From a virus (taxonomy: Duplodnaviria > Caudoviricetes), in IMG/VR virus record IMGVR_UViG_3300037493_003061, positions 789-64,788 of that record: a DNA stretch of 64,000 nt, one strand, 5' to 3'. Below are positions 1-50,334 of the stretch, piece by piece (the first letter of the stretch is position 1; every line of letters starts with the position of its first letter). The position numbers and the translations under genes are program-made. A model generated the notes under the pieces. It had not been told where the DNA came from. It made no database searches and saw nothing but the letters and a program-made list of their open reading frames with translations.

Positions 1-880
1 TAACATCTACTATCACCCCAACTAACACATCAACAAATACGCCAACTAATACTGTTACACCAACAAAGACTTCCACCAATACCCCTACAAACACACCAAC
101 CAATACTTCAACCAACACCCCTACGAATACCCCTACGAATACCCCTACAAAAACGGTTACGCCAACGAATACTCCGACTAACACTATAACTCAAACACCA
201 ACTAATACCCCAACCAATACTTTAACCCCAACCAATACGATTACTCAGACTCCAACTAACACCCCTACAAATACGACAACTAATACGGTAACACCAACAA
301 GAACTTCAACTAATACACCGACAAATACACCTACGAACACACCAACAAATACAATTACTAAGACCCCAACGAACACTATTACTCAAACACCTACGAGTAC
401 ATTAACACCAACAACCACCCCAACTAACACACCAACGAACACAATTACTAAGACCCCAACAAATACCCCAACTCCAACTAACACAATTACTAAGACACCG
501 ACTAATACTATAACTCAAACACCTACGAACACACCAACTCAGACTCCAACAAACACACCAACGAATACGAACACACCTACCAACACTATCACACCAACTA
601 ATACGATAACACCCACTAAAACCCCAACACCAACTAATACACCAACTAATACTATAACCCCTACAAATACGATTACTAAAACTCCAACTAATACAATAAC
701 CCAAACACCAACTAACACGCCAACTAACACCATCACTAAGACACCAACTAACACTCCGACTAACACCCCTACTAACACAATTACTCAAACGCCAACTAAC
801 ACCCCAACAAGAACTGTCACACCAACTAATACGCCAACAAGAACTGTTACACCAACACCAACAGTCACACCAATACTACC
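1..880 (+). repeat. Degenerate coding tandem repeat ([10 protein letters not shown] units)
   Basis: Recurrent acaccaactaac/aat 12-18 bp units encoding Thr-Pro-Thr-Asn. Confidence 0.95.
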
Positions 881-3791
881 TTTAGATTATGTTTCAACAT
901 TTGATTGTACATATCCTGTGACGATAAATATCAATACCTTTACAGGTGGTGTTCCACCATATTTTGTAGGGGATACTTTCTACACAAGTCAAGCAGCAGC
1001 GTTGGCAAACACAATTTGGAGTGAAGCGTCAAGTGCCGCTTATGGTGTTGGAACTAGTGGTTTTTATTGGACAGTTATTAAAGATTCAGTTGGAACATTA
1101 TTATCAAAATCGGTGAACGCTATTTGTCCAACTCAAACACCAACCCCAACTCAAACAAGAACTGAAACACCAACTCAAACACCAACTAATACGATTACCC
1201 CTACGAATACTAAAACACCAACTCAAACAATAACCCCAACTAAAACACCAACTCAAACAATAACCCCAACTAAAACACCAACTCAAACAATAACCCCAAC
1301 CGCCAACCAAACTTGTTTTACTTTCCCATCAAATCAAACTAATATAATTATAAACGATAATGGTCCAGCATCAGTTTACCCAATAACGTTTACAATTTCA
1401 GGTTTAGTTACAGCAATTAGTGATGTTAAAATAACATTAAGTGGATATTCACATACAGGTGTTGGAGATGTTGGTATGTTATTGGTCGCGCCTGATAATA
1501 CAAGTTGGTCATTATTAACCGGTAGAGTTGGAGGGGTTAATAATGCCGTTAACGCTAACGTAACATTAACAAGTTTTAGTTCACCAACATGGGATGGCTT
1601 TAGTTCAGGGACATTCAAAAATAATACTTTGGTTAATAACTCAATGCCATTTTCCGCACCATGTCCAACGACTTTTACAACCGGTAATTCACCAGCGTTC
1701 ACAATATTTGACGGAATACAACCGCCAGTTTCAAATGGCACATGGTCATTATATATTCAAGATTTTTCAATAGTTGATGTTGGTACATTATCAGGTGCGA
1801 CATTAGTCATATGTTCTGAAAACACAACCCCGACTCCAACCCCAACTAACACTGTCACACCAACTAATACCATAACACCAACAAGAACCGCAACTAATAC
1901 ACCAACTAACACTCCGACGAATACCATAACACCGACGAATACCATAACCCCAACTAAAACATCCACACCAACTAAAACATCCACACCAACTAATACACCA
2001 ACTAACACTATAACCCCAACAAATACGATAACACCAACTAAAACCCCGACTAATACCATAACACCCACAAATACGATAACACCAACTAAAACCGCAACGC
2101 CAACGAATACCCCTACTAACACAATTACACCCACTAAAACCCCAACACCAACTAATACACCAACTAATACTATAACCCCTACAAATACGATAACACCAAC
2201 TAAAACCCCGACTAATACCATAACACCCACAAATACGATAACACCAACTAAAACAGCCACTCCAACGAATACCCCTACTAACACAATTACACCCACTAAA
2301 ACCCCAACACCAACTAATACACCAACTAATACCATAACACCCACAAATACGATAACACCAACTAAAACCGCAACGCCAACGAATACCCCTACTAACACAA
2401 TTACACCCACTAAAACAGCAACACCAACTAACACACCAACTAATACCCCGACTAAAACCGCAACACCAACAAATACTTTAACACCCACAATAACACCACC
2501 ACCAGTTATTTGTTTCTTTTTCTCATCGTATATTAACCCAAGTACAGGGCCATATGGTACTTATCAAATATCAACAGGTTCAAGTGGGTTTTATAATGGA
2601 TATCCGTATTACACAATTATAGCACAATCCACAATCACAGGTTATGTTTGGTACGACACCGTCAATACTACATGGACTTACACAACAACTTTAGGTGGTG
2701 GTACAACTATTAGCGTATTAAATAATTCAATTTCACTACCCTACCCAATATCAAATAGACCGGCCATTTGGTTTGGTTCAATCGCCACAGGAAGTATGGA
2801 TGAATCTACTTCAGGTACATGTCCAACACCAACACCAACACCAACAACCACCGTTACGCCTACTAAAACACCAACAAATACACCAACTAGAACTGTAACA
2901 CCATCTATAACACCAACAAATACGATAACACCAACTAAAACAACAACACCATCACAATCAATAACACCAACTAGAACCGTTACACCTACCAACACCGTGA
3001 CACCAACTAGAACCGTTACGCCAACAAGTTCAACACCAGTATTCTCATTATCTGCTTGTGATGTTGTCTTCTCAAATAGTAGCATTTCACCATACCAATT
3101 CACGTATAACGTTAGTACAAATATTAAAACATCAATATCAACACCGGCACTTAATAGCCAATATGTTGCAAAAACATCTAATAGATTATGGTTAGATAAT
3201 GGTACATCATCGGCAACCGTTACAAATTTAAATGAATATGTGTTAGTTCAAAGTCCTTACAGTGTATCATTAAATCGTGCAATAGCCATATCAAATAATG
3301 GTTCAGGTAATTTCTGGACAGGATTTTTAGCTTACGATAATACCACATTAATTGGTGGTAATGGTACATTCCCAACTGTTTTAAGACAATTGGATATAAC
3401 AACAACCACTGCGACTCAAACAGTTTTATGGAGTACTCCGGTAACAAGACAAATGGTTGGTAATCCTATTTTCACAACCGCTGGTAAGCTACTATATTTA
3501 AACATTGACAATGCCGGAACACCTAATTCTTACATAACACAAAGAGATTACTTAACAGGCACATTAGAATACGAACTTCAAATTGGTTCTGCCGGTGATA
3601 TTTACACAGGTTTATTCTACACAGGATTCGCATTATATACGGTTAAAAATGACGGTAATGTATACCTTATTGACCCATGTACACCTCCATATTTAGTATC
3701 AGTTGGTTCTACAACAGTTAACACATCATCTCAAGCGGCACAAACAGCTTCTTGTATGACCATCAGTATAGCATATTTAACCTGTTTTTAA
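3..3791 (+). CDS. 5'-truncated mucin-like modular surface/fibre protein (Thr/Pro/Asn linkers separating globular domains, including a proprotein-convertase P-domain-like module)
   Basis: Frame 3 is open from the window start ([16 protein letters not shown]...) and continuous with ORF 918..3791. P-domain-like motifs [23 protein letters not shown] and [15 protein letters not shown] lie at ~1313-1815. Confidence 0.8.
1209..1300 (+). repeat. Three perfect 30-bp tandem repeats ([10 protein letters not shown])
   Basis: actaaaacaccaactcaaacaataacccca x3. Confidence 0.95.
1984..2417 (+). repeat. Near-identical 162-bp tandem duplication, with a third shortened copy, inside the Thr/Pro linker
   Basis: Units start at 1984, 2146 and 2308 with caccaactaatacaccaactaa and share synonymous codon choices. 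Confidence 0.85.
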
Positions 3792-3908: not shown

Positions 3909-4517
3909 TTACCAAACCTCAATTTGATTCATGAATCCAAGGACACAACAATAAGCATCCGTTTGGTCAAAATTTTCTTTTTTAAGAGTATTATTTTTAG
4001 TGTACTGCCATTGAATTTGTGGTTCAAGTTTTGCAATTTTTTCCCATATAATCATTTTCTTATCAATGTCTTTTGGAAGTCCACCAAACAAAACATATTT
4101 ACCTTTATCATTTTGTTGAACCAATTCAGGAAACGCAAACTTTCTTGAATTATAAGTTGAGATGAATTCAGGAACTATACCAAGCATATCGTAAATTTCT
4201 TTACAGATAAAACTATTAAATCTCATTAAAACTTGAACAGTATTAATATTATTTGAGTTCAACAAAGGTTCCTCAATAATGACTCTAACAATACCTAAAT
4301 TTTTATATTCTATTAATTTACTCTTAAAAACTTCCGCCTTTAACAATAATTCTTTAATTTTACTATTATCTTGATTTTCCTTAGATTTTGGTCTTGGCGA
4401 TATGTGAGTCAATTCCAAGAGTTCTTTACTTTGAATGTCAAATAATGCCCACCCGATTGTTCGGGTTGAAACATCTAATCCTAATACTTTTGGACTTTCT
4501 TTTAATGTTTTACTCAT
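3909..4517 (-). CDS. RuvC-like Holliday junction resolvase
   Basis: VLGLDVSTRTIGWA, VIIEEP and FDQTDAYC acidic RNase H-fold motifs; probable start MSKTLKE at 4517. Confidence 0.8.
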   Translation of the reverse strand: MSKTLKESPKVLGLDVSTRTIGWALFDIQSKELLELTHISPRPKSKENQDNSKIKELLLKAEVFKSKLIEYKNLGIVRVIIEEPLLNSNNINTVQVLMRFNSFICKEIYDMLGIVPEFISTYNSRKFAFPELVQQNDKGKYVLFGGLPKDIDKKMIIWEKIAKLEPQIQWQYTKNNTLKKENFDQTDAYCCVLGFMNQIEVW

Positions 4518-4521
4518 AAAT

Positions 4522-6999
4522 TTAAAAATCAAATTTTATTACAAACTGTTGAATCCCTTGTCTTGGAGTCGGAGATTGTAGTTTTGATATAATCATAAGG
4601 TCGTCACTGGAATCGTAAAGGGCAATTTCAGTTATATATAAAGGTTTACCATTAACCCAACTAGGATTTGAACTTGCTTGGAACTCCGCATCCCCTAAAT
4701 TAATTTTATATTTCATTTCATATATCGTTGCCTGTACGTCAGTTTCAACTGTACCATAGAAGTAATATTCATCACCAAAATTTAATTGTTGACCTGTAAA
4801 ACTTTTAGGTGTTAATTCAATATAATCCGATAAATCATAAATCGGAGCAGCATCGTATAAATCTTTACTTATAACAAAAGTAGTGCCTGTTAATCCTTCC
4901 TCAGTTATATGCCCATTAATAGTTGTTGCAGATAATAAATCCGTATAGTCAATTACTTTCCATTCAGTAGGTTCAGGTCTTCCATTACCAATCACTTTTT
5001 GACAAATAATTTCAAATTTATCTGCGAAGAATCCTGTCGGTAAATTACACACATCAGGACAAAGTGTTGTAGTCGTAGCAACATAGTTACCAATTGTTGT
5101 CGTTGTCGTCACCGGTGAATATGTTTTATAATTTAAACACCCAAACTCACCACCAAATCTCACAGAAACATTTTGAGGTCCAATATCTAAACAAGATAAA
5201 TTAGGACCTTGTATTTTAGTATAATAATTACAATGTAACGAATTTGTAAAAGAATTTTCATTACCCAATCTATAAGTAATGTATAAGTATTCAGTATTAC
5301 CCGTTAAAATCCCCTCACTTGATTGATTTGATGAACCGCAAGTGTTTGGTGTGGTCAACGCCACTTTAGGTGCCGGTAATGTCCAATTTCTATTTGATTT
5401 ATATGATAACGATGCAATTATTTCTTCATCGTCAATAATAACAATTTTATGGTCAGGAAACACCTTACCAATTCTATTTGGTAAATTAGTACTTGGATTT
5501 GGGTTATTATCCCATAAGTTATAATAACGAATTCCAGGCGTGTTCATATCAAGATTTTTCTTAGACTCAATATAACTAGGCTGAAATAAGTCAAAATCCT
5601 CAAACCCTGGAGGGTCAACCCAAAATGATTGTCCTTGACAACAGTCAGGATTTTTATGCCACATTAATGTTGGTAAGCTAATCTTGAAGTTTCTCGCTTG
5701 CCCAATAGTATCTTCAGGTAATGTTGGGTCTAAAGGTTCTAATGCAAATTTTTCACCATAATAAAAATCAATTGTCTGATTAGTATAATGAATAATAGCT
5801 ATCGCCTTTTGTTCTTCAGGTTGGACCTTAACAATCTCACCAAATGAATTATAATAATATGTATCGGTCGTTTCAGCACTTAAAGTTGGGTCAACATTGA
5901 ATGTTTGACCACTGTTTGACATATAACCTAAGTATTCTTTAGTTCCCATATATTGTACCGAACCAAAGTTAGAAAACCCTTTAACCACATCACTATCTAA
6001 CCCTGCAAAATCTTCAGACCAAGGAATATTCATATTCCATATTTTTACATCTAATTCATCACTATTACATAATGAACCAAAATTAATTACGTCAGTATTA
6101 TAATGATTTAATGGTGTTATACTATCATATAAATTAGTCATATTAGGTGGGTAAATAACCGTTCTTGCATAACATACACCCATTAAATCAGTATAATCAG
6201 GTGTTGGTCTGTCTAATGTAATAACGTTATTACACACGTCTAAAATTCTATAAGTTAAAATACCATAACAACTAAACATACTCATAACACAGGTTGTTTC
6301 AACAGGTGCTGGCGTCGGAGTTGGGAATGTAGGAGTCGGAGTTGGTTCAGGTGTTTCACAAGGTAATGTTTCCGTAGGTGTCGGAGTTTCAGTTGGCGTC
6401 TCAGTTGGAGTGGGTGTAGGTGTAGGCGTTAAACCACCACAATTACAATCATTTTTACCCCTACCATCATAATAAATAGTAATTAAATCACCAACTTGTG
6501 GTAATCTCACAATATTGGTATTACAACCCGAATAAACAACATTAATAGTATCACTACCATTCAATGTTGACATATCAACTATATAATTAGAATTTATAAC
6601 ATGTTTATTATCCGTAAACGCACTCCAGTATGTGAAGTTATCAATAGTTACACCCGTAAAAAAACCTCTTGGTTCCGCACGGTTATAAATAGGACTTGAA
6701 ATAGAATCCATATATGGTATACCATACGTATTACCATTAAATCCTTTCACATAATATGGATATTTTATATTCTGTTTGTTTGATTGGGGGGAACCACTTG
6801 AATTCTGAGCATTAAATGCCGGTTCTAAAATCATTGTTTCAGATTGATTGTACGATGCGTCCAACCCATTATAAGAAACCTCACTATCACCAATTTGGAA
6901 ATAAGAAATGTTAAAATTACCCTGTGATAATTTCTCCCTACCTGTATCAGTTAATCTACTGTTTAGTAAAGCTGACGTATTTTTTAATATATAACTCAT
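4522..6999 (-). CDS. Baseplate/tail-fibre attachment (collar-like) structural protein with Pro/Thr linker
   Basis: N-terminal LTDTGREKLSQG..ISYFQIGDSEV and C-terminal YITEIALYD...IISKL..P resemble tail-collar/fibre-base domains; PTPT and poly-Thr inserts. Confidence 0.55.
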   Translation of the reverse strand: MSYILKNTSALLNSRLTDTGREKLSQGNFNISYFQIGDSEVSYNGLDASYNQSETMILEPAFNAQNSSGSPQSNKQNIKYPYYVKGFNGNTYGIPYMDSISSPIYNRAEPRGFFTGVTIDNFTYWSAFTDNKHVINSNYIVDMSTLNGSDTINVVYSGCNTNIVRLPQVGDLITIYYDGRGKNDCNCGGLTPTPTPTPTETPTETPTPTETLPCETPEPTPTPTFPTPTPAPVETTCVMSMFSCYGILTYRILDVCNNVITLDRPTPDYTDLMGVCYARTVIYPPNMTNLYDSITPLNHYNTDVINFGSLCNSDELDVKIWNMNIPWSEDFAGLDSDVVKGFSNFGSVQYMGTKEYLGYMSNSGQTFNVDPTLSAETTDTYYYNSFGEIVKVQPEEQKAIAIIHYTNQTIDFYYGEKFALEPLDPTLPEDTIGQARNFKISLPTLMWHKNPDCCQGQSFWVDPPGFEDFDLFQPSYIESKKNLDMNTPGIRYYNLWDNNPNPSTNLPNRIGKVFPDHKIVIIDDEEIIASLSYKSNRNWTLPAPKVALTTPNTCGSSNQSSEGILTGNTEYLYITYRLGNENSFTNSLHCNYYTKIQGPNLSCLDIGPQNVSVRFGGEFGCLNYKTYSPVTTTTTIGNYVATTTTLCPDVCNLPTGFFADKFEIICQKVIGNGRPEPTEWKVIDYTDLLSATTINGHITEEGLTGTTFVISKDLYDAAPIYDLSDYIELTPKSFTGQQLNFGDEYYFYGTVETDVQATIYEMKYKINLGDAEFQASSNPSWVNGKPLYITEIALYDSSDDLMIISKLQSPTPRQGIQQFVIKFDF

Positions 7000-7029
7000 A
7001 TAATATTTTTTCTTTTTTTATTCGTATAG

Positions 7030-8376
7030 TTAATTACTATAATTTGTTTGAATTAAACTACAACATGTACAATCAACTAAATGTGAATTAACTATGAACG
7101 CATAATTACTAGTAAATAATGCCGAACAACATCCAGGAAATTGGCCACGACAATCTAATGTATAATCTCTAACCACCTTTACACTATAATTACTAGTTGT
7201 TGTGAATTCCAAATTTTGATATGTAAAGTTATAACCTGTCATATACATAGTATTAAATGAACATGAGTTAAGCACATTCGGTCCACTCGTTTCTGTAGTA
7301 TTATTAATACCAATATTTGGTACTCCGTTATTTAAAACCACAGGTGTAAAGGTTGAAGTCGCAGAATTTATATTAGGTGTACGAGAAAAATCACCATGAA
7401 GTTCTAAATCAAAAACTATTTTAACCCCAACAGGTAAACTAGGCGTTACCGTTAATGGGTATGTATACTCATATGAAGTATTACTTAATTGAACCACTAA
7501 TGGTGCTAAAAATGATATAGTGTATGTCGTTATTTGTTGACTATTAAAGACAATATTACCAGATTGAGAAACCACAATATTATTCGTAGAATCTTTAATC
7601 TGAGGTGTATAAGGAACATTAGAACATAAATTTGAGAATAAAGGACTTGACCCCCACGTTATACCCCCATTTATTGAATATTGATATGGTGGGACTCCAC
7701 CACTACCTTGTATAGTTATTGACGCATTACAACTCGTACATGTTGGGTCATTTTTACTTACACTTAACTTTAAATTATCAACATTAACACATACACCTTC
7801 GTTCACCGTAACAATTCCTTCATAACCTAAAATTAACCACCCATTAAATGGTGGGTAAGCCGGATTATTATTAATAATTGTTAAATTGTTTAACGTGTCA
7901 ACTAACTCCCAACGATTATCAACATTATCCCAAACAATAGTGTACAATTCATCATCAGAAATCCAACTTTGTTTATTATTTACAACCCCATTAGGATTAA
8001 AATGAATGGATAAATTCACATGACCAACATTTCCAACATAATTAATAATCATACAGAAATCATAGGTTATTATAGGTAATGTAGTTGTAGTAGTCGTTGT
8101 TGTTGGAATAAGCGGACCTGTTAACACACAAATAGTATTGGCGGTAAAATCACCATAATAATCAACAATTGTTGCGGGATATGAACCCACCGATAAATTA
8201 TTAATTACAAATGAACTATTCCCATTTCCCCAAGTAATATTGTAAGGAGGTGTTCCACCTGTTACAATTAAAGTTGCTGCACCATCAGACGTATTTTGTC
8301 CACTAGGATTAGTAACTTGACATGCAACCCCAAGTGGGAAAATTACAATAGGTTGACACTCGTTATTTTCAGGCAT
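7030..8376 (-). CDS. SprB-repeat-containing fibre/adhesin-like protein
   Basis: DGAATLIVTGGTPPYNITW...NLSVGSY and NDPTC..CNASITIQGSGGVPPYQYSI repeats; poly-Thr linker. Confidence 0.65.
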   Translation of the reverse strand: MPENNECQPIVIFPLGVACQVTNPSGQNTSDGAATLIVTGGTPPYNITWGNGNSSFVINNLSVGSYPATIVDYYGDFTANTICVLTGPLIPTTTTTTTTLPIITYDFCMIINYVGNVGHVNLSIHFNPNGVVNNKQSWISDDELYTIVWDNVDNRWELVDTLNNLTIINNNPAYPPFNGWLILGYEGIVTVNEGVCVNVDNLKLSVSKNDPTCTSCNASITIQGSGGVPPYQYSINGGITWGSSPLFSNLCSNVPYTPQIKDSTNNIVVSQSGNIVFNSQQITTYTISFLAPLVVQLSNTSYEYTYPLTVTPSLPVGVKIVFDLELHGDFSRTPNINSATSTFTPVVLNNGVPNIGINNTTETSGPNVLNSCSFNTMYMTGYNFTYQNLEFTTTSNYSVKVVRDYTLDCRGQFPGCCSALFTSNYAFIVNSHLVDCTCCSLIQTNYSN

Positions 8377-8393
8377 TATTAATCTGTTTTTTA

Positions 8394-8401
8394 TATAAAT
8401 A
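8394..8401 (-). promoter_or_regulatory. Putative late-promoter motif TATTTATA
   Basis: 18 nt upstream of the start at 8376; the same motif recurs before many structural genes. Confidence 0.55.
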
Positions 8402-8402
8402 A

Positions 8403-9389
8403 TCAGTTATTTCGTTTTTGTTGAATTAACGACTTCATAACTTCAATATATTTTATGGTAGAACTATTCTTTTCAATAAAATCAAAATAATTAGGGTCAT
8501 TTTCAATTTTTAGTAATGGGTCATCATTAATGTATTCCCCTTTATAAAATTTCCTATCTTTCAAATCTTCAGTAACACCCGCCATATGTAATATGGGTTT
8601 ATTATTATATAAAATGAGGTCGTCCGTTGCCCATGAAAAATCCAATTCTTTAGTCACCTTTGTTTCTTTACCAAAATACCACAGATTCCATAAAACCGAC
8701 CACATTTCAGCCGTCCAAAATTGTATTTCGCCAGGACTGATAGGGAATCGTTTTTGATAACTCATCATTTGGTCATATAATGGTACACAATCATCATAAA
8801 TTTTCTTCCACATCTCAGAATCGGTATCTTTTATAATATATTGACCACCACCCGAATTTTCTTGATTACATTTAACACAATTAATATTAACACCAACAAC
8901 ATCGGTCATCTCTTGAATTAATTGTCCTTTATTTGAATTGGGGTATTGAGTCTCATATCTATCACAACAATCCATAATATAATCATACCCTATATACCCA
9001 ACAGTGTCAGATAAATAAATAATATTATCTTTCATTAATTCTTTGAAATCAGGCAATTCTCTAAATATGATGTCAGCATCATGTAAAAAAAACGACTTTC
9101 CATATTGCGGATTTTCTTCTAACCATTTATAAATTAAAAATGGTTTTATATTCGGTATATAATGTTTTTTGTCTCGGTTATCAACATAATGATGGATATT
9201 TATACCTAAATCTTTTAATTCTAACGATTCTTTACTGGGTTCTTTTTTACCTTGAACTATCGCTAATACAACATGAATATCATTGGGGTTAATTCCTTTT
9301 TGTATAAAATTATGAACATAAACCTTAATTTGCCAATGAAAATATGGGACATCAGGTTGTGCCGAAACAAAGACTAAATTATTTTCCAT
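8403..9389 (-). CDS. GT-A glycosyltransferase, HPAT/SERGT (GT95/GT96)-like protein O-glycosyltransferase
   Basis: YFHWQ, YIPNIKP..IYKWL, FLHDADIIFR (DxD), WTAEMW and ILHMAG occur in the order I recall for plant peptidyl-Ser galactosyl-/Hyp arabinosyltransferases. Confidence 0.7.
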   Translation of the reverse strand: MENNLVFVSAQPDVPYFHWQIKVYVHNFIQKGINPNDIHVVLAIVQGKKEPSKESLELKDLGINIHHYVDNRDKKHYIPNIKPFLIYKWLEENPQYGKSFFLHDADIIFRELPDFKELMKDNIIYLSDTVGYIGYDYIMDCCDRYETQYPNSNKGQLIQEMTDVVGVNINCVKCNQENSGGGQYIIKDTDSEMWKKIYDDCVPLYDQMMSYQKRFPISPGEIQFWTAEMWSVLWNLWYFGKETKVTKELDFSWATDDLILYNNKPILHMAGVTEDLKDRKFYKGEYINDDPLLKIENDPNYFDFIEKNSSTIKYIEVMKSLIQQKRNN

Positions 9390-9432
9390 ACATGAAATAT
9401 AATTCAGAACTTTTCGTTATAAATAATACATT

Positions 9433-9963
9433 TTACGTGATTTGATTAAAATCCGGCATTGTTGATTGTTCAAATGATTCATTCATAAGTAGAACCATGA
9501 CATTTTGAATACAACACATAAACTCAGCTTCAGTTGTTTGATAATCTTCAGCTATAGTAATATCAAAACTTCCATCACCATAATCAACCACATACTCAAT
9601 TGTTATAGCACTCCCATCAATCGTCGGAACAATTGTTGACTCAGTCAAAATACCCGTTATTTTATTCTCTTCACACCTCATCATATTCCAAAAAACGGAA
9701 TATTTTACCAGGAAATCAATATAACATCCTTGATAAAAATCGGTATATATTTTTTCAATAAAAACCGATTCACAATCTTCACCATGAACACATGGGCTAG
9801 CCGCGAGAATATATCCTTCTAACGAGGCTATAAAAATATCTTTGGACTGATTCGCTTCTGATTCCATATTTTCCCAAATCACACAATCAACCTCAGTAGT
9901 GCCTGTTCCGAATACACCACCCCAAAAGTTGGTATAATCACAATTATCGTAAAAAAATGCCAT
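9433..9963 (-). CDS. Acidic Cys-containing hypothetical protein
   Basis: 176-aa ORF in the operon, D/E-rich; no recognisable motif. Confidence 0.6.
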   Translation of the reverse strand: MAFFYDNCDYTNFWGGVFGTGTTEVDCVIWENMESEANQSKDIFIASLEGYILAASPCVHGEDCESVFIEKIYTDFYQGCYIDFLVKYSVFWNMMRCEENKITGILTESTIVPTIDGSAITIEYVVDYGDGSFDITIAEDYQTTEAEFMCCIQNVMVLLMNESFEQSTMPDFNQIT

Positions 9964-9975
9964 ACTAATTTAAAA

Positions 9976-12870
9976 TTAAAATTTATATTTAAATATTTGA
10001 TATAATGGTGCATGAAATGTTGACCAAGTAAATGGTCTCCAAGCTAATGTTAATGATTCTAAAGACGCCCGAAACGTATTACGTTGACTTCTTTGAGTCA
10101 TTAAACAAATGTCAGCGTCGGGATAACCAACAATCACTGTTCCCTCACTAACCCAATTATTAGTATTTGGATTCCACATATAAAAAATTCCATCATCAAG
10201 AACAAAACAATATTGACCAAATACCCCCGTTAATGGTAAGTCAATGTAACTCTGAACTTCAGTTAAAAAAACAATATCAAAATCATATTCAGGACCCACA
10301 AAACCTAAATCCTTAAATATTTTTTTACAAGTACAACCTTGTAACATGTTAAATTTATACCATCCAATATTATCAGGACCGTTATAAAAATAATCAGTCG
10401 TATATCTTGATGGTGGTAATGGTGTTGGATATGAGTTGGCTAATGTCACCCGACCTTCGCTTAACGCTAAGTTATATTGGTTTTGGTAATAAAGAAATTC
10501 ATTCAATGAGTCCCTAAATTCTGATTCAACATCATTTGACCCATCACAATCACCAATATAAAAATTAGGCAATTCAGTACATCTACTAGGAATAATCTCA
10601 GTATTATCTAAATAATCAGGACCAAATAAATTATATTGAACTGGCGATATTAACTTAGTATCCGTAGTTTCACAATATTCATTAGTAATCTCACAATTTA
10701 TTGGTTCAAATTCAGGAGTATAACACCCTGTACACGCCTCACATGATATATCATAATATATAACCATATTAATCACAACATCGGCATCATTTAAGGATAC
10801 CTCACTATTACAATCGGTTGTTATAGTCATTTTATTATCATCAATATTAAACGTAACCGAGGATATACCATCATAATTAAGTAACATAGATTCAATCACA
10901 TCGTTCCATTCATTTACCGTTGGATACTCATTTAATGTTGTACCCGTATAAAATTCTTGAGTCGTTGTCACCCCACTTACAGTTATTGAAGCGTCAAATA
11001 TAGATTGATTTAAAACACAATTAAATTCATTTAGAGTCAATTCATTAAACCCTTCCAATAACATTTGTTTAGGTCCTTTAGTCAATAATTCACCATAATT
11101 AGATAAATCAGAATCACACACATTATAAACTTGATATGATGCTACAGAAATATTACCATTAATAGTAACAGTTCTAATTTTTTCACAATTTTGACTATCA
11201 ACAACTTTTAACGTGTAAGTTCCCGCAGATAAACTATTAACACTCATACCTGTTTGACCGTTAACATTTGAACTCCAAGTTAATATAAATGGCGGTTCAC
11301 CACTTGTTATTAAAGCCGTTATAGTACCATTATTACTACCAATTGAGTCAGTAGTCGTTAAAATGAAATCAACATTTGTTGATGGGTTAACATAAAATGT
11401 TATAGTTTGACTACAATTTGACCCATCAGTTACATTAACACTATGTGTTCCTGAAGATAAATTATTAAATGTTGTTGAACTTAATGTAGTTTGAATCGTG
11501 GCACCACCATCTAAAATATACGTAAATGATGGAGTCCCACCTGAAACATTTATCAAAACAGCACCATTATCACCACTACAAGTTGTTCCAGTAGTTGTTG
11601 CACTTAAAATAAATGACGGTATATTATTAATTATATATGTGTTAACATACACACATGAACTCCCATCACTAATAGTTAGAGTATAAGTACCCGAACTTAA
11701 ATTATTAAATGACCACGTTGAGCTTGTTGTTGTTTGAGATATCGTACTACCACCCTCTTTATCTAAAGTATATATAAACGGTGCCGAACCACCAAACAAA
11801 TTAATAACTAATGTACCATCATTATCACTACATGTTGAGTTAGTTGTTGTTATTGAAACAACTGAAAAACTACCAGGAGTTGTTAAATAGGTTGATGCCG
11901 TCGTATTACATAATCCAGCATCGGTTATTTTAATGTTAAAATTACCACTACCTAAATTCGTAAAAGTATATTCTGTACCAAATGATGGACCATTATTTGA
12001 TGAGGTTGAACCCGAATAATAATATGGGCCTGTACCACCTGTTATTACTACAGTGACTTCACCATTTGATTCAAAACAAGATGGTCCCGTTGTAAAAATA
12101 GCGGCAATACCAATCGGTGGAACTTGAGCAACAAATGTTGTTTTACTAATAGAACAACCTGTATTATCCGTCACCATAACACTATAACCACCCGTAGTTA
12201 AACCACTAATACTTGATGTTGTCGCCCCATTAGACCACAAATAAGTATATGGGGGATTACCTGTCAATCCTGTCACAAATATTTTACCTGAATTAACAGC
12301 ACAACCCGCATCATTAACAACATATAACCCATAATCAACCGTTGTTGAATCTTGAATGATTACACTTTCACTTTGTCCCGTACACCCACCACCATCATTA
12401 GCAACAACGTAATAAGTACTGGCCGATAAATTAGTAAATTGATAGTTGGCTGTAACACTTGTTGCTGAAGTTATATAACCATCAACACTATCATATAAGT
12501 AAAAACTAGATTGACCATATAAATTTGATGTAATAGCATTAATACTACCATTATCTAACCCACATAACGTATTTTCAAAACTACTTACCGAAACACAAGT
12601 ACCACTAGATATATAGGTATTAACCGACACAACAGTATTTGTTGGTGAACAACTATCAATTATATTAAATGAATATGTTGACGCTGATAAATTAGTTACC
12701 GTATAACCAGTTACACCAACACCTAAAACTATCGTACCAAATGATACAGGATTTAACCATTGTATTGTATAGTCAGGCGCACTACCAAATATTTGTACTT
12801 CAAAAGCACCATTATTAGTATTTGAACAATCACCAGTAATAATTAAATCATATGTTAAATTACAAGCCAT
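9976..12870 (-). CDS. Multi-SprB-repeat adhesin/fibre-like virion protein
   Basis: About seven repeats of C...NG.I.V..TGG..PY.Y.W/L...F.NLS.GTY...V.D...C. Confidence 0.75.
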   Translation of the reverse strand: MACNLTYDLIITGDCSNTNNGAFEVQIFGSAPDYTIQWLNPVSFGTIVLGVGVTGYTVTNLSASTYSFNIIDSCSPTNTVVSVNTYISSGTCVSVSSFENTLCGLDNGSINAITSNLYGQSSFYLYDSVDGYITSATSVTANYQFTNLSASTYYVVANDGGGCTGQSESVIIQDSTTVDYGLYVVNDAGCAVNSGKIFVTGLTGNPPYTYLWSNGATTSSISGLTTGGYSVMVTDNTGCSISKTTFVAQVPPIGIAAIFTTGPSCFESNGEVTVVITGGTGPYYYSGSTSSNNGPSFGTEYTFTNLGSGNFNIKITDAGLCNTTASTYLTTPGSFSVVSITTTNSTCSDNDGTLVINLFGGSAPFIYTLDKEGGSTISQTTTSSTWSFNNLSSGTYTLTISDGSSCVYVNTYIINNIPSFILSATTTGTTCSGDNGAVLINVSGGTPSFTYILDGGATIQTTLSSTTFNNLSSGTHSVNVTDGSNCSQTITFYVNPSTNVDFILTTTDSIGSNNGTITALITSGEPPFILTWSSNVNGQTGMSVNSLSAGTYTLKVVDSQNCEKIRTVTINGNISVASYQVYNVCDSDLSNYGELLTKGPKQMLLEGFNELTLNEFNCVLNQSIFDASITVSGVTTTQEFYTGTTLNEYPTVNEWNDVIESMLLNYDGISSVTFNIDDNKMTITTDCNSEVSLNDADVVINMVIYYDISCEACTGCYTPEFEPINCEITNEYCETTDTKLISPVQYNLFGPDYLDNTEIIPSRCTELPNFYIGDCDGSNDVESEFRDSLNEFLYYQNQYNLALSEGRVTLANSYPTPLPPSRYTTDYFYNGPDNIGWYKFNMLQGCTCKKIFKDLGFVGPEYDFDIVFLTEVQSYIDLPLTGVFGQYCFVLDDGIFYMWNPNTNNWVSEGTVIVGYPDADICLMTQRSQRNTFRASLESLTLAWRPFTWSTFHAPLYQIFKYKF

Positions 12871-15800
12871 TAATTACATAAAATATTAAAATTTATTCCG
12901 ACATTAATCTTTAAATTAACCCCATTATCATTTTCCGAACAGATGTTATTATAAATAACTACAGTGTTGTTTTCTGTGAGATAATAATCATACCCATACA
13001 TTTTTAACTCGTCTAATGCTTCTATCAATGCGATATCCCAAGCGGTGTTAGTTGTTGGATAACTTAAATTAGGAGTTGTCAACCCAACACCAATAAAGAA
13101 CGGTATTTGTATAATCATAACATCGTTAACTCTAATATCAACATACCACTGAGAATTAAGGGAGTTAATCAAACAGTCATTTAACGTGTATCCGTTATCG
13201 CTTAAATATTGATTTAATAAAAATGCTAACACACCACTAAATTGTTGTACTTGTGGATTCGTATTCCAAGGATATGTTGGACATTCGGTTGATTGTACAG
13301 GACAATCTACTGGAAATATACTTGTCGTCAACGTACATGGTTTACATGGTACCGGCACTATTTCACAACCTCTTTGTCTTCTCCAAACAAATTTTTGTCT
13401 ATGAAATATTGAATTTTCATATTTAACTCCGGTATTCCAAATTGTTGATGCTGGCATCATTTGTTCAACTAATCGTATCCAAAAACTACCTAATCCGTTC
13501 ACGTAATCAATCATTGTTTGATATGAGAAATTATCATTAGAAATACCAATAGCATTTTGTGATTCCAAATATTTCCAATAAATTGAACCTAACGTTGGAT
13601 ATCCACCAACTTTACTACCACTAAACTGTCTGTCTCTAACATTTATCATATTTTGCCAAAACGTTTGGGCAAATTCAAAAAATGTTTGATTTTTTGGTTG
13701 TGGGTTTATCTCTGTCCAATCAACACCACCTTTATTAGGGTAAATATTATTTGGTATTATATTAAAAAATTGAGTTGGTAATATCGTCTCGGAAGTTCCT
13801 GACTTAAAAATAGGACTCGCAGCAACACCATAAGTAATAGCGTTAGGACCAATAACAATATTACTAAACGAACTCGTTAATGTTAAATCACCATAATTAT
13901 CCGGTAATGTTATTTCAGTACTACCTGTGAATGACCCTGAAGTAATTATAACACTTGTAGTTATTTCAATGTCAGGACCTGAAACCACACCTAAAGTATT
14001 TTTAAAATCTAATTTAATGTCAAAATCTTTAGTTATATTTGAAGTAACGTTATAAGTAGCTTTAACCGAACCTGGTTCGTATGTTGCGGCTAAATTTAAC
14101 GTAATAGTTGTCGGTGGAATAAAATTCATCCCTTGGTTTGGGATTGGGTAGTTATATTGTCTAGACATATACCATATGTCATATGCAATCCCTTGTCCAG
14201 GATTTAAAAATAAATCAACGTTTTTAACGTTTAGCACTAATTTGTCATTAGTTGTGTAATACTTAGCATTGTATTTTCCCTCCAAATTGACTCTTAAACC
14301 AACTTCGTTATCTGTCCAACTTTTGTTGTTATCAACATTTATTTTTAACTTATAACCAAGATTCATAAATGGGAATTTACGGAACCTATCTAAATATTCT
14401 TGACCATAAGAATAAGGTATTAACGAAGTTTGGAAATCGGGGTTTGCTCCCGTAAAAACACTTGTCGTTAAATTAACTTGTTCTGGTGCCCTATGGTCAG
14501 GTGTTTGTTCAAACCATCCACTACCCGATTGGAAAAAATAATCGTCAGTGTCTTCAGGTGCCGATGGATAACCATAATCGTCCATAGGAAATTCGTCCCT
14601 ATTAATATTAACATCCTGAATACTATTTTGTGTTGTAAACCCCGTATAAGGAACCCCCATTATTGAGAATGTATATGCCGGGTCTAAAACGGGTGTGTCC
14701 TGTACATATGTACCACCAGATATAGCGGCAAATTGTTTATCAAATTGATTTAAATTAATCTTTTGGTCAGCCAAATAAACATGTTCATTAAATTCAATCA
14801 ACGCTTCAGGAGCCCCAATTAAGGATAATAAAGTTTCAATTGATTTTCTAGTTCCTTTAGATTTAAATAAATACGCTGAATTTAAGACTAAATTTCTATA
14901 GTATTGATAATTTAACTCATCAGGCGTTAATGACGTACTAATACCACTAAAATCCGATTTTTGAGCATTTTTTTGACCAAAAACCGAACTTAATAATTCC
15001 TCATTAGATATTGGAGATATATTAGTTCTCCAACCTAAAGTTTGAGCTAAATTTTTTAATAATTGTGATGGTATATCATTACCAACATTATAATTAACAG
15101 AATTTACGTAAGCTAAGGCATCAATGAATTTTTTTGTTTCATCAAAACTTCGCCCATATATTTGTATAATCTTTTCAACTTTTTGTCCTAACGTGTCAAA
15201 TTCATTAAAAGCACCTGTAGTTAAAAATCTAGATATTAAGTTTGTTTTGTACCCATCAAAATTAGCACTAATTTCATTAAGTTTACTAAGATAAGTTGTA
15301 AATGACGATGATATAATATCAAGATTCCATAGTACACTAATCGGCCATGCAACCGTTTCATATCCCGTATAATAAGTACCATCATCACTAGACATGGGAA
15401 TATTAAATGTTGCGGTATATTTTGGTACTATATTTCTATTTAATAAGAAATTCTCTACTTGGTCTAATTTCTCATTAAATACCCTGTTAACCTCAGAATC
15501 ATTAGGTCTAATAACAAATGAATCATAACTAAAACTACCACCAGAAAAGGGATTACCCTCAACAACAATTGTTAATATACCACTAACTAAAGATTGAGTT
15601 GGGGTTAACCTAAGAACTGAATAACCTTCATCATTTATGTACAACGAATACTTAGCATATTCAACAGTCATATTTCTTAATTGTGATACGGGTATTTCTC
15701 GTAATTCTAAATTTCTAGTTGAGTTAACAGTAAAATCAACACCAAAAGGATTTCTAAATTTTAGAACATTTAAATCAAATGTCGTTACGTTCTGTATAGA

Positions 15801-16229
15801 ATCAAACACTATATTATCAGCCGTCACCCCTGTTGTATAATCAGGAGCAAATACCGTAGATTCAAGACCAGCAGGAAAATAATTAATAATATTTTCAACT
15901 GACGCTGAAATTCTTTTAACCATTGACCCATAAAGGGTAAAGCTGGTTATTTGTGATAAATCAAAATTTGGATAAACTTTAAAATTATTTTCAAAAATAG
16001 CTTTAGATTGTTCAACAGTGTCAATACCTAAACCTTGTAAATTAATAGGGTCTGAAAATACTCCCGTTGAAAACGTTCTATTAACTTTTTCGGTTATAGA
16101 TTCGGTAAATTCAAAATTACCTTGAGTTAACCCACCACCTTGCACTAACTGAAACCCGACTAAATCATCGGAAAATGTTCCAGAACCTGTTGCCGATTGT
16201 GGGGGACAAGTATATTTTTTATTTGCCAT
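12870..16229 (-). CDS. Baseplate wedge subunit (P2 gpI / T4 gp7-like domain)
   Basis: LLKNLAQTLGW ... YRNLVLNSAYLFKSKGTRKSIETLLSLIG motif; baseplate context. Confidence 0.6.
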   Translation of the reverse strand: MANKKYTCPPQSATGSGTFSDDLVGFQLVQGGGLTQGNFEFTESITEKVNRTFSTGVFSDPINLQGLGIDTVEQSKAIFENNFKVYPNFDLSQITSFTLYGSMVKRISASVENIINYFPAGLESTVFAPDYTTGVTADNIVFDSIQNVTTFDLNVLKFRNPFGVDFTVNSTRNLELREIPVSQLRNMTVEYAKYSLYINDEGYSVLRLTPTQSLVSGILTIVVEGNPFSGGSFSYDSFVIRPNDSEVNRVFNEKLDQVENFLLNRNIVPKYTATFNIPMSSDDGTYYTGYETVAWPISVLWNLDIISSSFTTYLSKLNEISANFDGYKTNLISRFLTTGAFNEFDTLGQKVEKIIQIYGRSFDETKKFIDALAYVNSVNYNVGNDIPSQLLKNLAQTLGWRTNISPISNEELLSSVFGQKNAQKSDFSGISTSLTPDELNYQYYRNLVLNSAYLFKSKGTRKSIETLLSLIGAPEALIEFNEHVYLADQKINLNQFDKQFAAISGGTYVQDTPVLDPAYTFSIMGVPYTGFTTQNSIQDVNINRDEFPMDDYGYPSAPEDTDDYFFQSGSGWFEQTPDHRAPEQVNLTTSVFTGANPDFQTSLIPYSYGQEYLDRFRKFPFMNLGYKLKINVDNNKSWTDNEVGLRVNLEGKYNAKYYTTNDKLVLNVKNVDLFLNPGQGIAYDIWYMSRQYNYPIPNQGMNFIPPTTITLNLAATYEPGSVKATYNVTSNITKDFDIKLDFKNTLGVVSGPDIEITTSVIITSGSFTGSTEITLPDNYGDLTLTSSFSNIVIGPNAITYGVAASPIFKSGTSETILPTQFFNIIPNNIYPNKGGVDWTEINPQPKNQTFFEFAQTFWQNMINVRDRQFSGSKVGGYPTLGSIYWKYLESQNAIGISNDNFSYQTMIDYVNGLGSFWIRLVEQMMPASTIWNTGVKYENSIFHRQKFVWRRQRGCEIVPVPCKPCTLTTSIFPVDCPVQSTECPTYPWNTNPQVQQFSGVLAFLLNQYLSDNGYTLNDCLINSLNSQWYVDIRVNDVMIIQIPFFIGVGLTTPNLSYPTTNTAWDIALIEALDELKMYGYDYYLTENNTVVIYNNICSENDNGVNLKINVGINFNILCN

Positions 16230-17137
16230 TATTGTGTTATGTTTGTAAAGTTTTTACTAAAATCAATGTTATCACCTCTATCTTGTCTAACCTCATATAA
16301 TAAACTATTAAATTGGTCCCTAATTTCGTAAAGGTTATATTGTTTGTATATGTTGTTGTTATCGTCGTAAAGAGTATAAACACCATCATCAATTGACTTA
16401 GTTTGATTACCATATAGAGCAATTGCCAATGTTGAGAAATCATGTTCCGCAAGTTCAATGTCCAAAGTTATTGGATTGAAGAATGTGTTCGTTATAATAA
16501 TATTTTGATTAGGCTGACCAATATATGGCGTAGCATTTGGTTTGTTTGTCGGAGCCGATGATGGAGATAACGTACAAAATAATAAATTAGTATTACTATC
16601 TGTGTATCTATATCTAATAGCCTTCTGAGACGAATTCGTTAAATTTTGAACTACAGGTTCACAGAAAAATGATGATGTAATTAACCTAAAAAAGTTAGGT
16701 ACTTTTGTACCGTCAGAATTTAAATATTCAACTCTAAACCCAATTAATCCTTGATTAACAAATTTATTTCTATACTCAGACGGTACCGCATTTAAATCAA
16801 TAACAATTCCTTTAACATTTGGTAGTGAAGATAAAACACCACAATCTAATATTGTCGTTCTTATTTGTGCGGGTCTAACATATAATGTATAAATCCCGAT
16901 TTTGTTAAATTGTTCTGCTGGTAATGTTAAATTATATAAACCACCTAACAATTCAACGTTAGGTGTACCACCAGTTTCATCATTATTAAAATAAGGTTTA
17001 AGTATCGTTTTAGCATCCAATTTTGTTAATACAAAATTGTTAGTTTCATCTCGTGATGCCGTATAATTCAAAATTATCTCAACATCTTCAGGTGAAACAT
17101 CTGCGGGTCTTATAGTACCATAGGTTGAAGTCGCCAT
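16229..17137 (-). CDS. Putative baseplate/virion structural protein
   Basis: Translationally coupled ORF in the baseplate cluster, preceded by TATTTATA. Confidence 0.5.
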   Translation of the reverse strand: MATSTYGTIRPADVSPEDVEIILNYTASRDETNNFVLTKLDAKTILKPYFNNDETGGTPNVELLGGLYNLTLPAEQFNKIGIYTLYVRPAQIRTTILDCGVLSSLPNVKGIVIDLNAVPSEYRNKFVNQGLIGFRVEYLNSDGTKVPNFFRLITSSFFCEPVVQNLTNSSQKAIRYRYTDSNTNLLFCTLSPSSAPTNKPNATPYIGQPNQNIIITNTFFNPITLDIELAEHDFSTLAIALYGNQTKSIDDGVYTLYDDNNNIYKQYNLYEIRDQFNSLLYEVRQDRGDNIDFSKNFTNITQ

Positions 17138-17158: not shown

Positions 17159-17166
17159 TATAAATA
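17159..17166 (-). promoter_or_regulatory. Putative late-promoter motif TATTTATA
   Basis: 22 nt upstream of the start at 17137. Confidence 0.55.
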
Positions 17167-28575: not shown

Positions 28576-28623
28576 ATTATATAAATATAATGTTATAATA
28601 TTTCCAATAAATAGATATAAAAT

Positions 28624-33949: not shown

Positions 33950-34948
33950 TTAATTTTTAAACTTTCTTTTTTCTTTTCTTGCCAATTTTAAATAGGGTGT
34001 CAAGAATTTTACCCATTCATTATCTCTTTTAGGTAGGTATTTAAATAATCCATCTTCCATCATCATTTTCATCAGATTCTTATACCCCCTACCTTCAGGG
34101 TCTAAAGTTTCTGTGTAATAAAGTTCTACAATTTCTTTTCCATCATCATTAATTAAAGGGTTAGACAAATCAACTATTTTTTCATTTATAACAAAAAACT
34201 CATCACCAAATATACCATTTTTTGTTTTACCGGTCAATAAATTTTTAAGGGTCGTGTTTTCTTTATCCTCTTTTAACATTAACTCCGCCTTTGTTAAAAT
34301 ATCGGAAACAGAAACTTCTTTATCAAGTATCTCAGGAAATAACTTGATAAATGTTTTTTCACCAAGATAATAAATACCATCAATATTGTCAGATTTATCA
34401 CCTGATAGTATTTTATAGGTCGTTATGTTCTGATGAGGTATCTCAATACCATCAATTTTGATTTTATCCCCATTCTTATACACTTTCTTTTGTGATGGGG
34501 AATAGACACTCACTTTATCAGAAATAAGTTGTGTGAGGTCTTTATCATCTGAGAATATCATTTTTTCTTCGTTAGGAGATATTTGACAATAATAGGCTAT
34601 AAGGTCGTCCGCCTCATTATTTGGAATGTCAATTTGTCTAACAAATGTTTCCTCTAAATATTGTTTGATTCTTTGTCGTTGTTGATGATAAGATTCTTCG
34701 TTAAAGTTTTTATTAACTCTACGATTTTCTTTGTACTGGGGGTATAGTAGCTTACGAGATGATGAGTTATCCTCACCATCCCAAATTGCCACTACTTTAT
34801 CAAAATTATGTTCTTCAATAAATCTTCTAATGGTATTTAAAAAGTGCCAAATTCCTCCCACATGTCTTCCTTCATGGTAAAAATCTTTAACTCCGTGAAA
34901 ACCTATTTTAAATAAATTTGAACTATCAATTAGTAATGTTTTAGTCAT
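33950..34948 (-). CDS. 5'-3' exonuclease / flap endonuclease (T4 RNase H / PolI N-domain-like)
   Basis: LLIDSSN, WDG, YKENR, EADDLIA, SDDKDLTQL, GDKSDNIDGI..LGEKT. Confidence 0.92.
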   Translation of the reverse strand: MTKTLLIDSSNLFKIGFHGVKDFYHEGRHVGGIWHFLNTIRRFIEEHNFDKVVAIWDGEDNSSSRKLLYPQYKENRRVNKNFNEESYHQQRQRIKQYLEETFVRQIDIPNNEADDLIAYYCQISPNEEKMIFSDDKDLTQLISDKVSVYSPSQKKVYKNGDKIKIDGIEIPHQNITTYKILSGDKSDNIDGIYYLGEKTFIKLFPEILDKEVSVSDILTKAELMLKEDKENTTLKNLLTGKTKNGIFGDEFFVINEKIVDLSNPLINDDGKEIVELYYTETLDPEGRGYKNLMKMMMEDGLFKYLPKRDNEWVKFLTPYLKLARKEKRKFKN

Positions 34949-35864: not shown

Positions 35865-35919
35865 ATATTATAAATACGTATAAATCCCGAAAAAGAATGT
35901 CCAATTAACAATTTTATTG

Positions 35920-50326: not shown

Positions 50327-50334
50327 TATAAATA
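50327..50334 (-). promoter_or_regulatory. Putative late-promoter motif TATTTATA
   Basis: 15 nt upstream of the start at 50312. Confidence 0.55.

Follow-up and report, generated by a model that had tools for sequence, protein, structure and literature searches.

Why would a tailed phage carry, among its baseplate and fiber genes, an enzyme that resembles a glycosyltransferase, next to proteins with threonine/proline (Thr/Pro) tracts? The question is raised by the gene at positions 8403 to 9389 of the stretch of DNA analyzed here (the window), which comprises 64,000 of the 64,788 bases of the IMG/VR virus record IMGVR_UViG_3300037493_003061 (Duplodnaviria; Caudoviricetes), a record with an estimated completeness of 22%. 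A first-pass annotation of the window had proposed that the gene encodes a glycosyltransferase of the plant HPAT/GT95/GT96 kind, which in the cytoplasm would O-glycosylate Thr and Ser residues of external virion proteins made by the phage itself. We find that the protein, of 328 amino acids (aa), matches PHROG 4417, a family of “unknown function” (E value 4.2e-72, residues 7 to 320 on profile positions 3 to 290 of 293). Judging from sequence and gene context, the product of the PHROG 4417 gene is probably a protein O-glycosyltransferase that works in the cytoplasm, with Thr tracts in virion proteins of the same phage as its acceptors. Virion O-glycosylation has gained in credibility because homologs adjoin genes for poly-Thr proteins, because enzyme and poly-Thr tail are present or absent together, because relatives are fused to glycosyltransferase domains, and because a sister clade lies in peptide-modification clusters; the plant-family label is unproven. 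The gene and the two presumed catalytic positions within it are as follows.

8403 to 9389, minus strand: candidate protein O-glycosyltransferase of the PHROG 4417 family, 328 aa, soluble, ATG start.
9072 to 9080, minus strand: codons of the DxD motif D104-A105-D106, the presumed metal/nucleotide-diphosphate-sugar site.
8586 to 8588, minus strand: codon of H268, an invariant His on a late strand (residues 266 to 268 of the structural model).

PHROG 4417 is a large family. A single-sequence search recovered 1471 clusters at 90% identity and a profile search 2875, with 838 representatives at 50%, and the names found for members were all “hypothetical protein” or “prophage pi2 protein 34”. A Bacillus prophage homolog matches the PHROG profile at an E value of 3.5e-115. 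When a set of 5.8 billion proteins was searched with a profile, the 120 top matches were all unnamed and had no Pfam domains. By tblastn, the family is found in 77 GenBank phage records at 26 to 38% identity, from phages of Lactobacillus (23), Enterococcus (21), Staphylococcus (11), Lactococcus (8), and others. In the six phages first inspected (PLE3, Bacchae, PMBT8, phiFL1A, phiCTP1, and Chryseobacterium phage MA9V-3), the gene immediately upstream of the homolog encodes a poly-Thr virion protein in all six; these phages are listed here with two others.

phiFL1A and phiCTP1: the upstream gene is the major tail protein, with poly-Thr at its C terminus.
PLE3, Bacchae, and PMBT8: the upstream gene encodes a 105- to 125-aa protein annotated “major tail protein”, with a poly-Thr tract (in PLE3, gp08 upstream of the homolog gp09).
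Chryseobacterium phage MA9V-3: the upstream gene encodes a 428-aa protein with a poly-Thr tract.
Lactococcus phage 1706: the homolog is ORF14; ORF10 (annotated head maturation protease, 686 aa) and the major tail protein ORF13 end in T9 to T10 followed by HHD.
Enterococcus phage VPE25: the major tail protein, which ends in a T10 run, lies ~1.8 kb downstream of the homolog.

The same arrangement recurs in bacterial genomes. Among 80 bacterial-genome loci, a poly-Thr tract ends within 1500 nucleotides (nt) upstream of the homolog on the same strand in 24, and within 1500 nt downstream in none. In 21 Bacillota prophages (a 22nd was dropped, no enzyme open reading frame [ORF] having been called), the upstream ORF carries poly-Thr in 14/21, compared with 22/217 other ORFs, and the tracts lie mostly at extreme C termini. 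In one prophage the tails are borne by the major head protein (phrog_10), the major tail protein (phrog_88), and a small phrog_749 protein, and in a second by the major head protein (phrog_840) and the major tail protein (phrog_238). We also grouped 236 loci into 60 clusters at 60% identity, 19 of them single-domain (phage-type) and 41 two-domain. A poly-Thr ORF lies within 3 kb in 16/19 single-domain clusters versus 3/41 two-domain chromosomal clusters, and the adjacent ORF carries the tract in 13/19 versus 1/41. At the level of ORFs, poly-Thr occurs in 26/109 near versus 2/64 far ORFs of the single-domain loci (P = 2e-4) and in 3/199 near ORFs of the two-domain loci.

The association extends to joint presence and absence. 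Orthologs of structural proteins were fetched irrespective of the enzyme gene, and each locus was scored as having both the enzyme and the poly-Thr tail, the tail only, the enzyme only, or neither. The tail-tube set, obtained with a Bacillus prophage protein as the query, comprised 40 viral loci, of which 4 were dropped for missing downstream sequence; the remaining 36 gave counts of 9/0/0/27 (Fisher's test, P = 1e-8), one of the 27 being without a readable tail. In 8 of the 9 loci with both, the enzyme frame opens 7 to 65 nt beyond the point where the tail-protein match ends; in the ninth (L287) this distance is ~120 nt and the frame is split in two. When the loci are ranked by identity, the two states are interleaved, a pattern that favors repeated gain or loss of tail and enzyme as a unit. 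The capsid set, obtained with the major head protein of a Lacticaseibacillus prophage, comprised 56 loci, 1 of which was dropped, and the 55 used gave counts of 38/0/1/16, with a P value of 6e-13 that overstates the independence of the loci, the 38 being 82 to 100% identical to the query. At the single discordant locus (L326), the poly-Thr tail lies in another frame and the enzyme gene is in two pieces, that is, both are frameshifted; this reflects either sequencing error in a homopolymer-like tract or joint decay of tail and enzyme. A small third set, of VPE25-type tail proteins, gave 4/0/0/3. The enzyme and the candidate acceptor tail are inherited together.

Two of the capsid orthologs without the enzyme gene (L311 and L335, 95% and 69% identical to the query) carry, in place of the poly-Thr tail, a C-terminal extension that looks Ig-like. 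Their sequences suggest that an Ig-like extension and poly-Thr decoration are interchangeable.

A different setting is seen in bacterial chromosomes. Most Bacteroidota chromosomal homologs (Chitinophaga, Pedobacter, Sphingobacterium, Mucilaginibacter) are two-domain proteins of 500 to 830 aa without poly-Thr neighbors, and a quick tree (SH-like approximate likelihood ratio test [SH-aLRT] support only, midpoint root) separates the phage/prophage group, which includes the window protein, from this chromosomal group with a split support of 84. The neighbors of this sister clade are radical-SAM, LanC-like, C39-peptidase ABC exporter, VKOR/thioredoxin, and AhpC/thioredoxin genes. In 18/41 two-domain clusters, versus 0/19 phage-type clusters, there are one or two small ORFs whose products have a double-glycine leader, directly followed by a Ser/Thr-rich stretch and then a Cys-rich core, for example:

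L108: 994 to 1230 and 3446 to 3718, peptide ORFs.
L154: 311 to 574, peptide ORF.
L157, L119, L126, L130, L163, and others: further clusters with such ORFs.

Glycosylated bacteriocins have the same layout of leader, Ser/Thr stretch, and Cys-rich core. From their sequences, the Bacteroidota peptides look like an undescribed glycocin-like class, and their layout provides an independent pointer to peptide Ser/Thr as the acceptor of the PHROG 4417-type catalytic domain.

We then considered whether the 328-aa protein itself has the features of a glycosyltransferase. The ORF and the motifs quoted in the first-pass annotation are present, and the motifs coincide with conserved columns of the family rather than being chance strings: PYFHWQ (aa 15 to 20), HYIPNIKPFLIYKWL (aa 76 to 90), HDADIIFR (aa 103 to 110), and FWTAEMW (aa 224 to 230). 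In a 60-sequence alignment, D106, Y77, W230, and H268 are invariant, and conservation is at least 90% at D104, Y16, W19, Q20, W225, and M229; an alignment of 30 sequences shows no variation at D104, D106, H268, W19, Q223, and W225. An AlphaFold2 model built with the 60-sequence alignment has a predicted local distance difference test (pLDDT) score of 97.3 and a predicted template modeling (pTM) score of 0.94. Its elements, strands (E) and helices (H), run in the order E6-12, H15-30, E38-44, H53-61, E64-69, H78-92, and E99-102, and the DxD follows directly after this fourth strand, in the context FFLHDADIIF, that is, after a hydrophobic strand. Judged from the order of elements and the DxD, the model supports, but does not prove, an assignment to the nucleotide-binding half of a GT-A glycosyltransferase. 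Of the earlier description as a GT-A enzyme, the conserved DxD is confirmed and the strand/helix order is consistent with it, and the GT-A fold itself is an interpretation rather than an observation. H268 is a candidate third metal ligand. No hydrophobic anchor is found in the protein, the highest 19-aa Kyte-Doolittle mean being 0.65, and the chain opens straight away with the first strand of the model.

Fusions point in the same direction. Among 10 long relatives scanned with Pfam, 3 carry PF11397 (GlcNAc), one of these together with O-FucT and F5/8C domains, and 1 carries Glyco_transf_7C; among 69 further relatives, 12 are fused to a glycosyltransferase domain (Glyco_transf_7C in 6, GT2 in 4, GT6 in 1, GT25 in 1), and 1 carries radical SAM/SPASM. 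Fusions of two transferases are as expected of enzymes that build a glycan stepwise. PF11397 (Skp1 Hyp GlcNAc-transferase) and PF10250 (protein O-fucosyltransferase), which are cytoplasmic or protein-directed and are found in these 3/10 long relatives, are partner domains of the family and not homologs of the window protein. Together, the invariant or nearly invariant DxD and late His, the compact alpha/beta model, the glycosyltransferase fusions, and the HPAT-labeled language-model neighborhood described below suggest an enzyme of this kind. Separately, about 12 Bacillaceae prophage loci and L140 (ORF 5001 to 6083) encode homologs of 342 to 364 aa with a ~57-aa C-terminal extension that matches an Arc-like repressor (phrog_3673, 3e-18); the extension may be a true fusion or read-through of a small downstream gene.

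What, then, would the enzyme act on in the window? Thr/Pro mucin-like tracts had been reported in the genes near 8403 to 9389, and we find them in 4/37 window ORFs, 3 of which lie within 5 kb of the gene. All four are candidate acceptors.

7030 to 8376, minus strand: 448-aa SprB-repeat protein directly downstream of the enzyme gene, with a T8 tract at aa 88 to 102 (nt 8071 to 8115).
4522 to 6999, minus strand: 825-aa conserved neighbor, with a (TP)n/TETP tract at aa 189 to 232 (nt 6304 to 6435) and T4 to T5 runs at nt 5065 to 5109.
3 to 3791, plus strand: ORF open at its 5' end, at least 1262 aa, composed largely of mucin-like TPTN tandem repeats of 12-nt period.
56438 to 59764, minus strand: tail sheath, 1108 aa (phrog_23, E value 2.5e-55), with poly-Thr runs at aa 287 to 319 (nt 58808 to 58906).

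The repeats of the ORF at 3 to 3791 are broken by three or four globular segments, and this ORF is convergent with the structural operon. The sheath is about twice the usual size, and its match to the 496-position sheath profile is spread across the full 1108 aa, which points to a large inserted domain bounded by the poly-Thr runs. A survey of phage low-complexity regions found enrichment in Ala, Gly, and Pro, not Thr (PMC6821194); on that account, poly-Thr is atypical among phage low-complexity types.

The pairing is also seen in the window's own clade. The set comprised 80 related jumbo-phage loci with 50 distinct enzyme sequences, and we count the clade as one observation. Where a locus is long enough to show them, the genes stand in the same order, namely, enzyme, SprB-like protein, 825-aa protein, and 207-aa protein. 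Identity is 65 to 87% for the enzyme but only 21 to 63% for the adjacent SprB-like protein, which also varies in length. A Thr/Pro tract is found in the next ORF (+1) in 66/80 loci and in +1 or +2 in 76/80.

We infer the following scheme, which covers catalysis, the sugar transferred, the residues that accept it, and the effect of the glycan. A soluble, cytoplasmic, DxD (metal-dependent) enzyme with a Rossmann-like order of strands and helices would be made late in infection and would move a sugar from a host nucleotide-sugar onto the hydroxyls of Thr, and possibly Ser, before or during assembly. Its targets in the window would be the T8 tract of the protein at 7030 to 8376, the TP and TPTN tracts of the two large neighbors, and the poly-Thr linkers around the putative external insertion of the sheath; in Bacillota phages, PHROG 4417 enzymes would act on poly-Thr tails at the extreme C termini of major capsid and tail-tube proteins. 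Exposed parts of the particle (capsid, tail tube, sheath insertion, and fiber-like proteins) would thereby acquire a mucin-like glycan brush, which could provide shielding, protease resistance, stiffening, or adhesion.

Several results weigh against this scheme, and the first of them concern the identity of the enzyme. Searches of Pfam, NCBIfam, and PDB sequences with the 328-aa protein gave no usable match, and PDB profile searches with three family alignments gave only nonsignificant ones (a GlcNAc-1-phosphotransferase at an E value of 0.11; TAL-effector repeats). The GT-A assignment derives from secondary-structure order and the DxD, not from comparison with solved structures, and an hhalign comparison of the family with its commonest fused C-terminal domain gave a probability of 0.5%, which does not show a relation. 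As for the proposed plant kinship, 19 of the 30 named clusters closest to the protein in the ESM Atlas carry the Pfam domain HPAT (PF23452) in 10 to 58% of their members, at scores of 0.96 to 0.98, and 6 carry DUF7164. The HPAT hidden Markov model (HMM; cutoff 23.9 bits) gave no match to the 328-aa protein at an E value of ≤10 and none in 139 relatives (60 + 69 + 10), in the six frames of the record, or in 10 homolog-bearing genomes; the DUF7164 (PF23741) HMM gave none in the protein, the scanned relatives, the record, or the homolog-bearing genomes. A search of 301 Bacillota genomes for HPAT and DUF7164 also gave no matches, control genomes included. The protein, which has no HPAT HMM match and no type II membrane anchor, is therefore not filed under HPAT/GT95/GT96; the language-model neighborhood, with which the HMMs disagree, is the sole link and makes the kinship a lead.

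Other points against the scheme concern the acceptors and the sugar donor. The co-occurrence counts include close relatives and are phylogenetically nonindependent, 3/19 single-domain clusters have no nearby poly-Thr ORF, and the two upstream ORFs carry tracts in just 18/77 jumbo-phage loci. In this window the tracts are internal linkers and not C-terminal tails, and in Bacteroidota, proteins often have Thr/Pro linkers between their domains, which need no modification. Candidate acceptor segments at the C termini of capsid and tail-tube subunits are seen in the Bacillota relatives, whereas those of the window are internal and lie in fiber-like and sheath proteins. Confidence is lower for this phage than for the family, mainly because its internal tracts could be plain linkers. 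No nucleotide-sugar synthesis gene or second glycosyltransferase was found by Pfam or PHROGs scans among the 30 other window ORFs, in a record that holds ~22% of the genome.

Three alternative explanations were weighed, none of which accounts for the linked presence and absence of enzyme and tail. One is that the protein is a glycosyltransferase with a nonvirion target, such as phage DNA, a host envelope polymer (for serotype conversion or receptor masking), or a host protein, and that the Thr/Pro tracts are unmodified flexible linkers that only happen to lie in the same structural module. The best-known roles of phage glycosyltransferases are in DNA glucosylation and in serotype conversion (PMC12619734), and both the internal position of the window tracts and a weak PvuRts1I-like match in the ORF at 54796 to 56376, which is below the cutoff, fit such a target. 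We regard it as unlikely, since it leaves unexplained the linked gain and loss of enzyme and poly-Thr tails among capsid and tail-tube orthologs, the extreme C-terminal tails, which link nothing, and the peptide-modification context of the sister clade; moreover, the 328-aa protein has no membrane segment, and in temperate Bacillota phages the gene lies within the late structural operon and not in the lysogeny module.

A second alternative retains the Thr tracts as acceptors and changes the chemistry, to transfer of a sugar-1-phosphate (Stealth/GNPTAB-like) or of another nucleotide-activated group. Proteins other than glycosyltransferases can also combine a DxD with alternating strands and helices, and the only PDB profile match to an enzyme, the nonsignificant one at 0.11, is to the catalytic domain of a GlcNAc-1-phosphotransferase and is aligned across the DxD region. 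That match was not repeated with a second family profile, however, and both the fused partners, which are classical glycosyltransferases and fit stepwise glycan building, and the language-model neighbors, which are HPAT- and GT6-labeled clusters, favor sugar transfer, so that we judge a different chemistry quite unlikely. Finally, the protein could have a nonenzymatic role, either serving Thr-rich structural proteins as an assembly factor or chaperone or being itself part of the virion. This would suit a protein without a catalytic family assignment whose gene belongs to structural operons and, in several phages, separates the tail-tube gene from the tail chaperones. A nonenzymatic role is nevertheless highly improbable: the invariant DxD and His in a compact alpha/beta model suggest catalysis, as do the recurrent fusion of relatives to glycosyltransferase domains and the occurrence of this domain in bacteriocin-like clusters.

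Glycosylation of virion proteins is, as a kind of process, already known in phages. In mycobacteriophages, which encode glycosyltransferases, glycans are reported at the C termini of capsid and tail-tube proteins (Freeman et al. 2023, as cited in PMC12619734 and PMC13313380), which is the same protein pair that carries poly-Thr tails in Bacillota phages. The system proposed here differs in its Bacillota and Bacteroidota hosts, in a poly-Thr acceptor that can be recognized from sequence, and in an enzyme gene that usually adjoins the acceptor gene; its family, PHROG 4417, has no Pfam name, and the tracts of the window are internal and lie in fiber and sheath proteins. Literature searches on PHROG 4417, on poly-Thr tails of phage capsid or tail proteins, and on virion glycosylation in Bacillota or Bacteroidota phages found nothing, subscription journals and supplements being outside the search; in the searchable literature, virion glycosylation is shown for actinobacteriophages only. 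The name “prophage pi2 protein 34” was found in one unrelated paper (PMC8768576). New here are the enzyme family, the sequence-recognizable poly-Thr acceptor, the tight pairing of the genes, the range across Bacillota and Bacteroidota phages including jumbo phages, and the bacteriocin-like link.

Outside phages, the closest parallels are protein-directed. The plant enzymes HPAT1-3 (GT95) and SGT1, the extensin Ser alpha-galactosyltransferase (GT96), are Golgi type II membrane enzymes (PMC8012813). Like the proposed phage enzyme, they O-glycosylate proteins, initiating glycans on structural proteins with Pro/Ser-rich repeats; in contrast, their acceptors are Hyp and Ser, here Thr, and they are anchored, whereas the window protein has no anchor. 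The mucin-type GalNAc-transferases (GT27), which are eukaryotic enzymes of the secretory pathway with lectin domains, use Thr/Pro tandem repeats as acceptors and have a GT-A fold with a DxD and His metal site. The likeness to the window system lies in the Thr/Pro repeats and in the DxD and His; a sequence relation was not found in this analysis. Glycocins such as sublancin and glycocin F are made from peptides with a double-glycine leader, with a C39-ABC exporter and thiol-disulfide oxidoreductases, and their known transferases belong to GT2. Only the two-domain Bacteroidota sister clade, and not the window gene, resembles them, and its enzyme differs in combining a PHROG 4417-type N-terminal domain with a second, Glyco_transf_7C-like domain instead of GT2.

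A broader reading is tentative. PHROG 4417 may be the writer of a widespread and hitherto unrecognized two-part virion decoration cassette, consisting of a poly-Thr “mucin” tract on capsid, tail-tube, sheath, or fiber proteins and a dedicated cytoplasmic O-glycosyltransferase, that moves between Bacillota and Bacteroidota phages and is interchangeable with Ig-like domains; its catalytic domain would have been recruited for glycocin-like peptides, and it would be a prokaryotic/viral counterpart of the plant GT95/GT96 enzymes that glycosylate extensins. If the proposed activity is correct, glycan-coated particles would be common in phages of lactic acid bacteria, enterococci, staphylococci, clostridia, and aquatic Bacteroidota, and the modification would be predictable from sequence as a poly-Thr tract plus a PHROG 4417 gene. 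Thousands of “hypothetical proteins” would gain a function, and virion proteomics by mass spectrometry would miss the glycosylated peptides. There would be a bearing on phage therapy (antibody recognition, clearance, and stability) and on dairy phage control. Glyco-engineering would gain an enzyme that is compact and soluble and whose acceptor tag is short, and there would be a testable evolutionary link to plant cell wall protein glycosylation. Cultured phages that bear the pair, namely, Lactococcus phage 1706, Enterococcus phage VPE25, and Lactobacillus phage PLE3, make the question directly testable.

At ~22% completeness the record implies a genome near 290 kb, and related contigs are 270 to 318 kb. 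The gene can be placed in a baseplate/fiber module because a baseplate wedge subunit, a T4-type baseplate protein (52405 to 53163), the tail sheath, and SprB repeats lie around it, and from these sequence matches the earlier label “fiber cluster” is reasonable. SprB repeats are found in both of its large neighbors (7030 to 8376 and 9976 to 12870), which suggests, by inference, a Bacteroidota host. The remaining genes of the module that bear on its position are as follows.

26275 to 28113, minus strand: baseplate wedge subunit (phrog_219, E value 3.3e-24, in a PHROGs scan of the window ORFs), which puts the 8403 to 9389 gene within the baseplate/fiber module.
9433 to 9963, minus strand: 176-aa protein directly upstream of the enzyme gene, with no family and no Thr tract, found only in the closest relatives.
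9976 to 12870, minus strand: 964-aa SprB-repeat, fiber-like protein upstream (SprB E value 7e-23), with no Thr tract here; some orthologs have one.

A megablast search of positions 4500 to 16300 against GenBank phages gave zero matches, and no cultured close relative of the jumbo phage was found. The “moraphages” described in a 2025 article (PMC12619734) are aquatic jumbo phages whose genomes reach 307 kb; their hosts are predicted to be Bacteroidota, and their core genome includes four glycosyltransferase orthogroups. The window phage may belong to this lineage or to a related one.

The first-pass annotation also pointed to a motif of the gene's own, TATTTATA, upstream of its start. The motif is present 29 nt before the ATG, and it is a possible phage (late) promoter element; a promoter role drew no support from the count across the whole window, which is at chance (19 matches versus 19.8 expected, hence no over-representation), or from a sigma-70 promoter scan around the gene, which was not above shuffled sequence (64 versus 61.6). 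Among the minus-strand matches, 7/12 sit 5 to 35 nt upstream of minus-strand ORF starts:

8394 to 8401, minus strand: copy before the start at 8376.
9418 to 9425, minus strand: copy before the start at 9389, the enzyme gene.
17159 to 17166, minus strand: copy before the start at 17137.
28580 to 28587, minus strand: copy before the start at 28575.
35869 to 35876, minus strand: copy before the start at 35864.
50327 to 50334, minus strand: copy before the start at 50312.
53789 to 53796, minus strand: copy before the start at 53754.

Two further ORFs of the window, both on the minus strand, gave matches to nuclease-related families. The ORF at 54796 to 56376 has weak N-terminal matches to DUF7487 and to a PvuRts1I-like domain, the latter below the curated cutoff. 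The ORF at 34941 to 35864, which matches NUMOD3 and a TnsA-like endonuclease and lies between a 5'-3' exonuclease gene and a RecA-like gene, may be a homing endonuclease.

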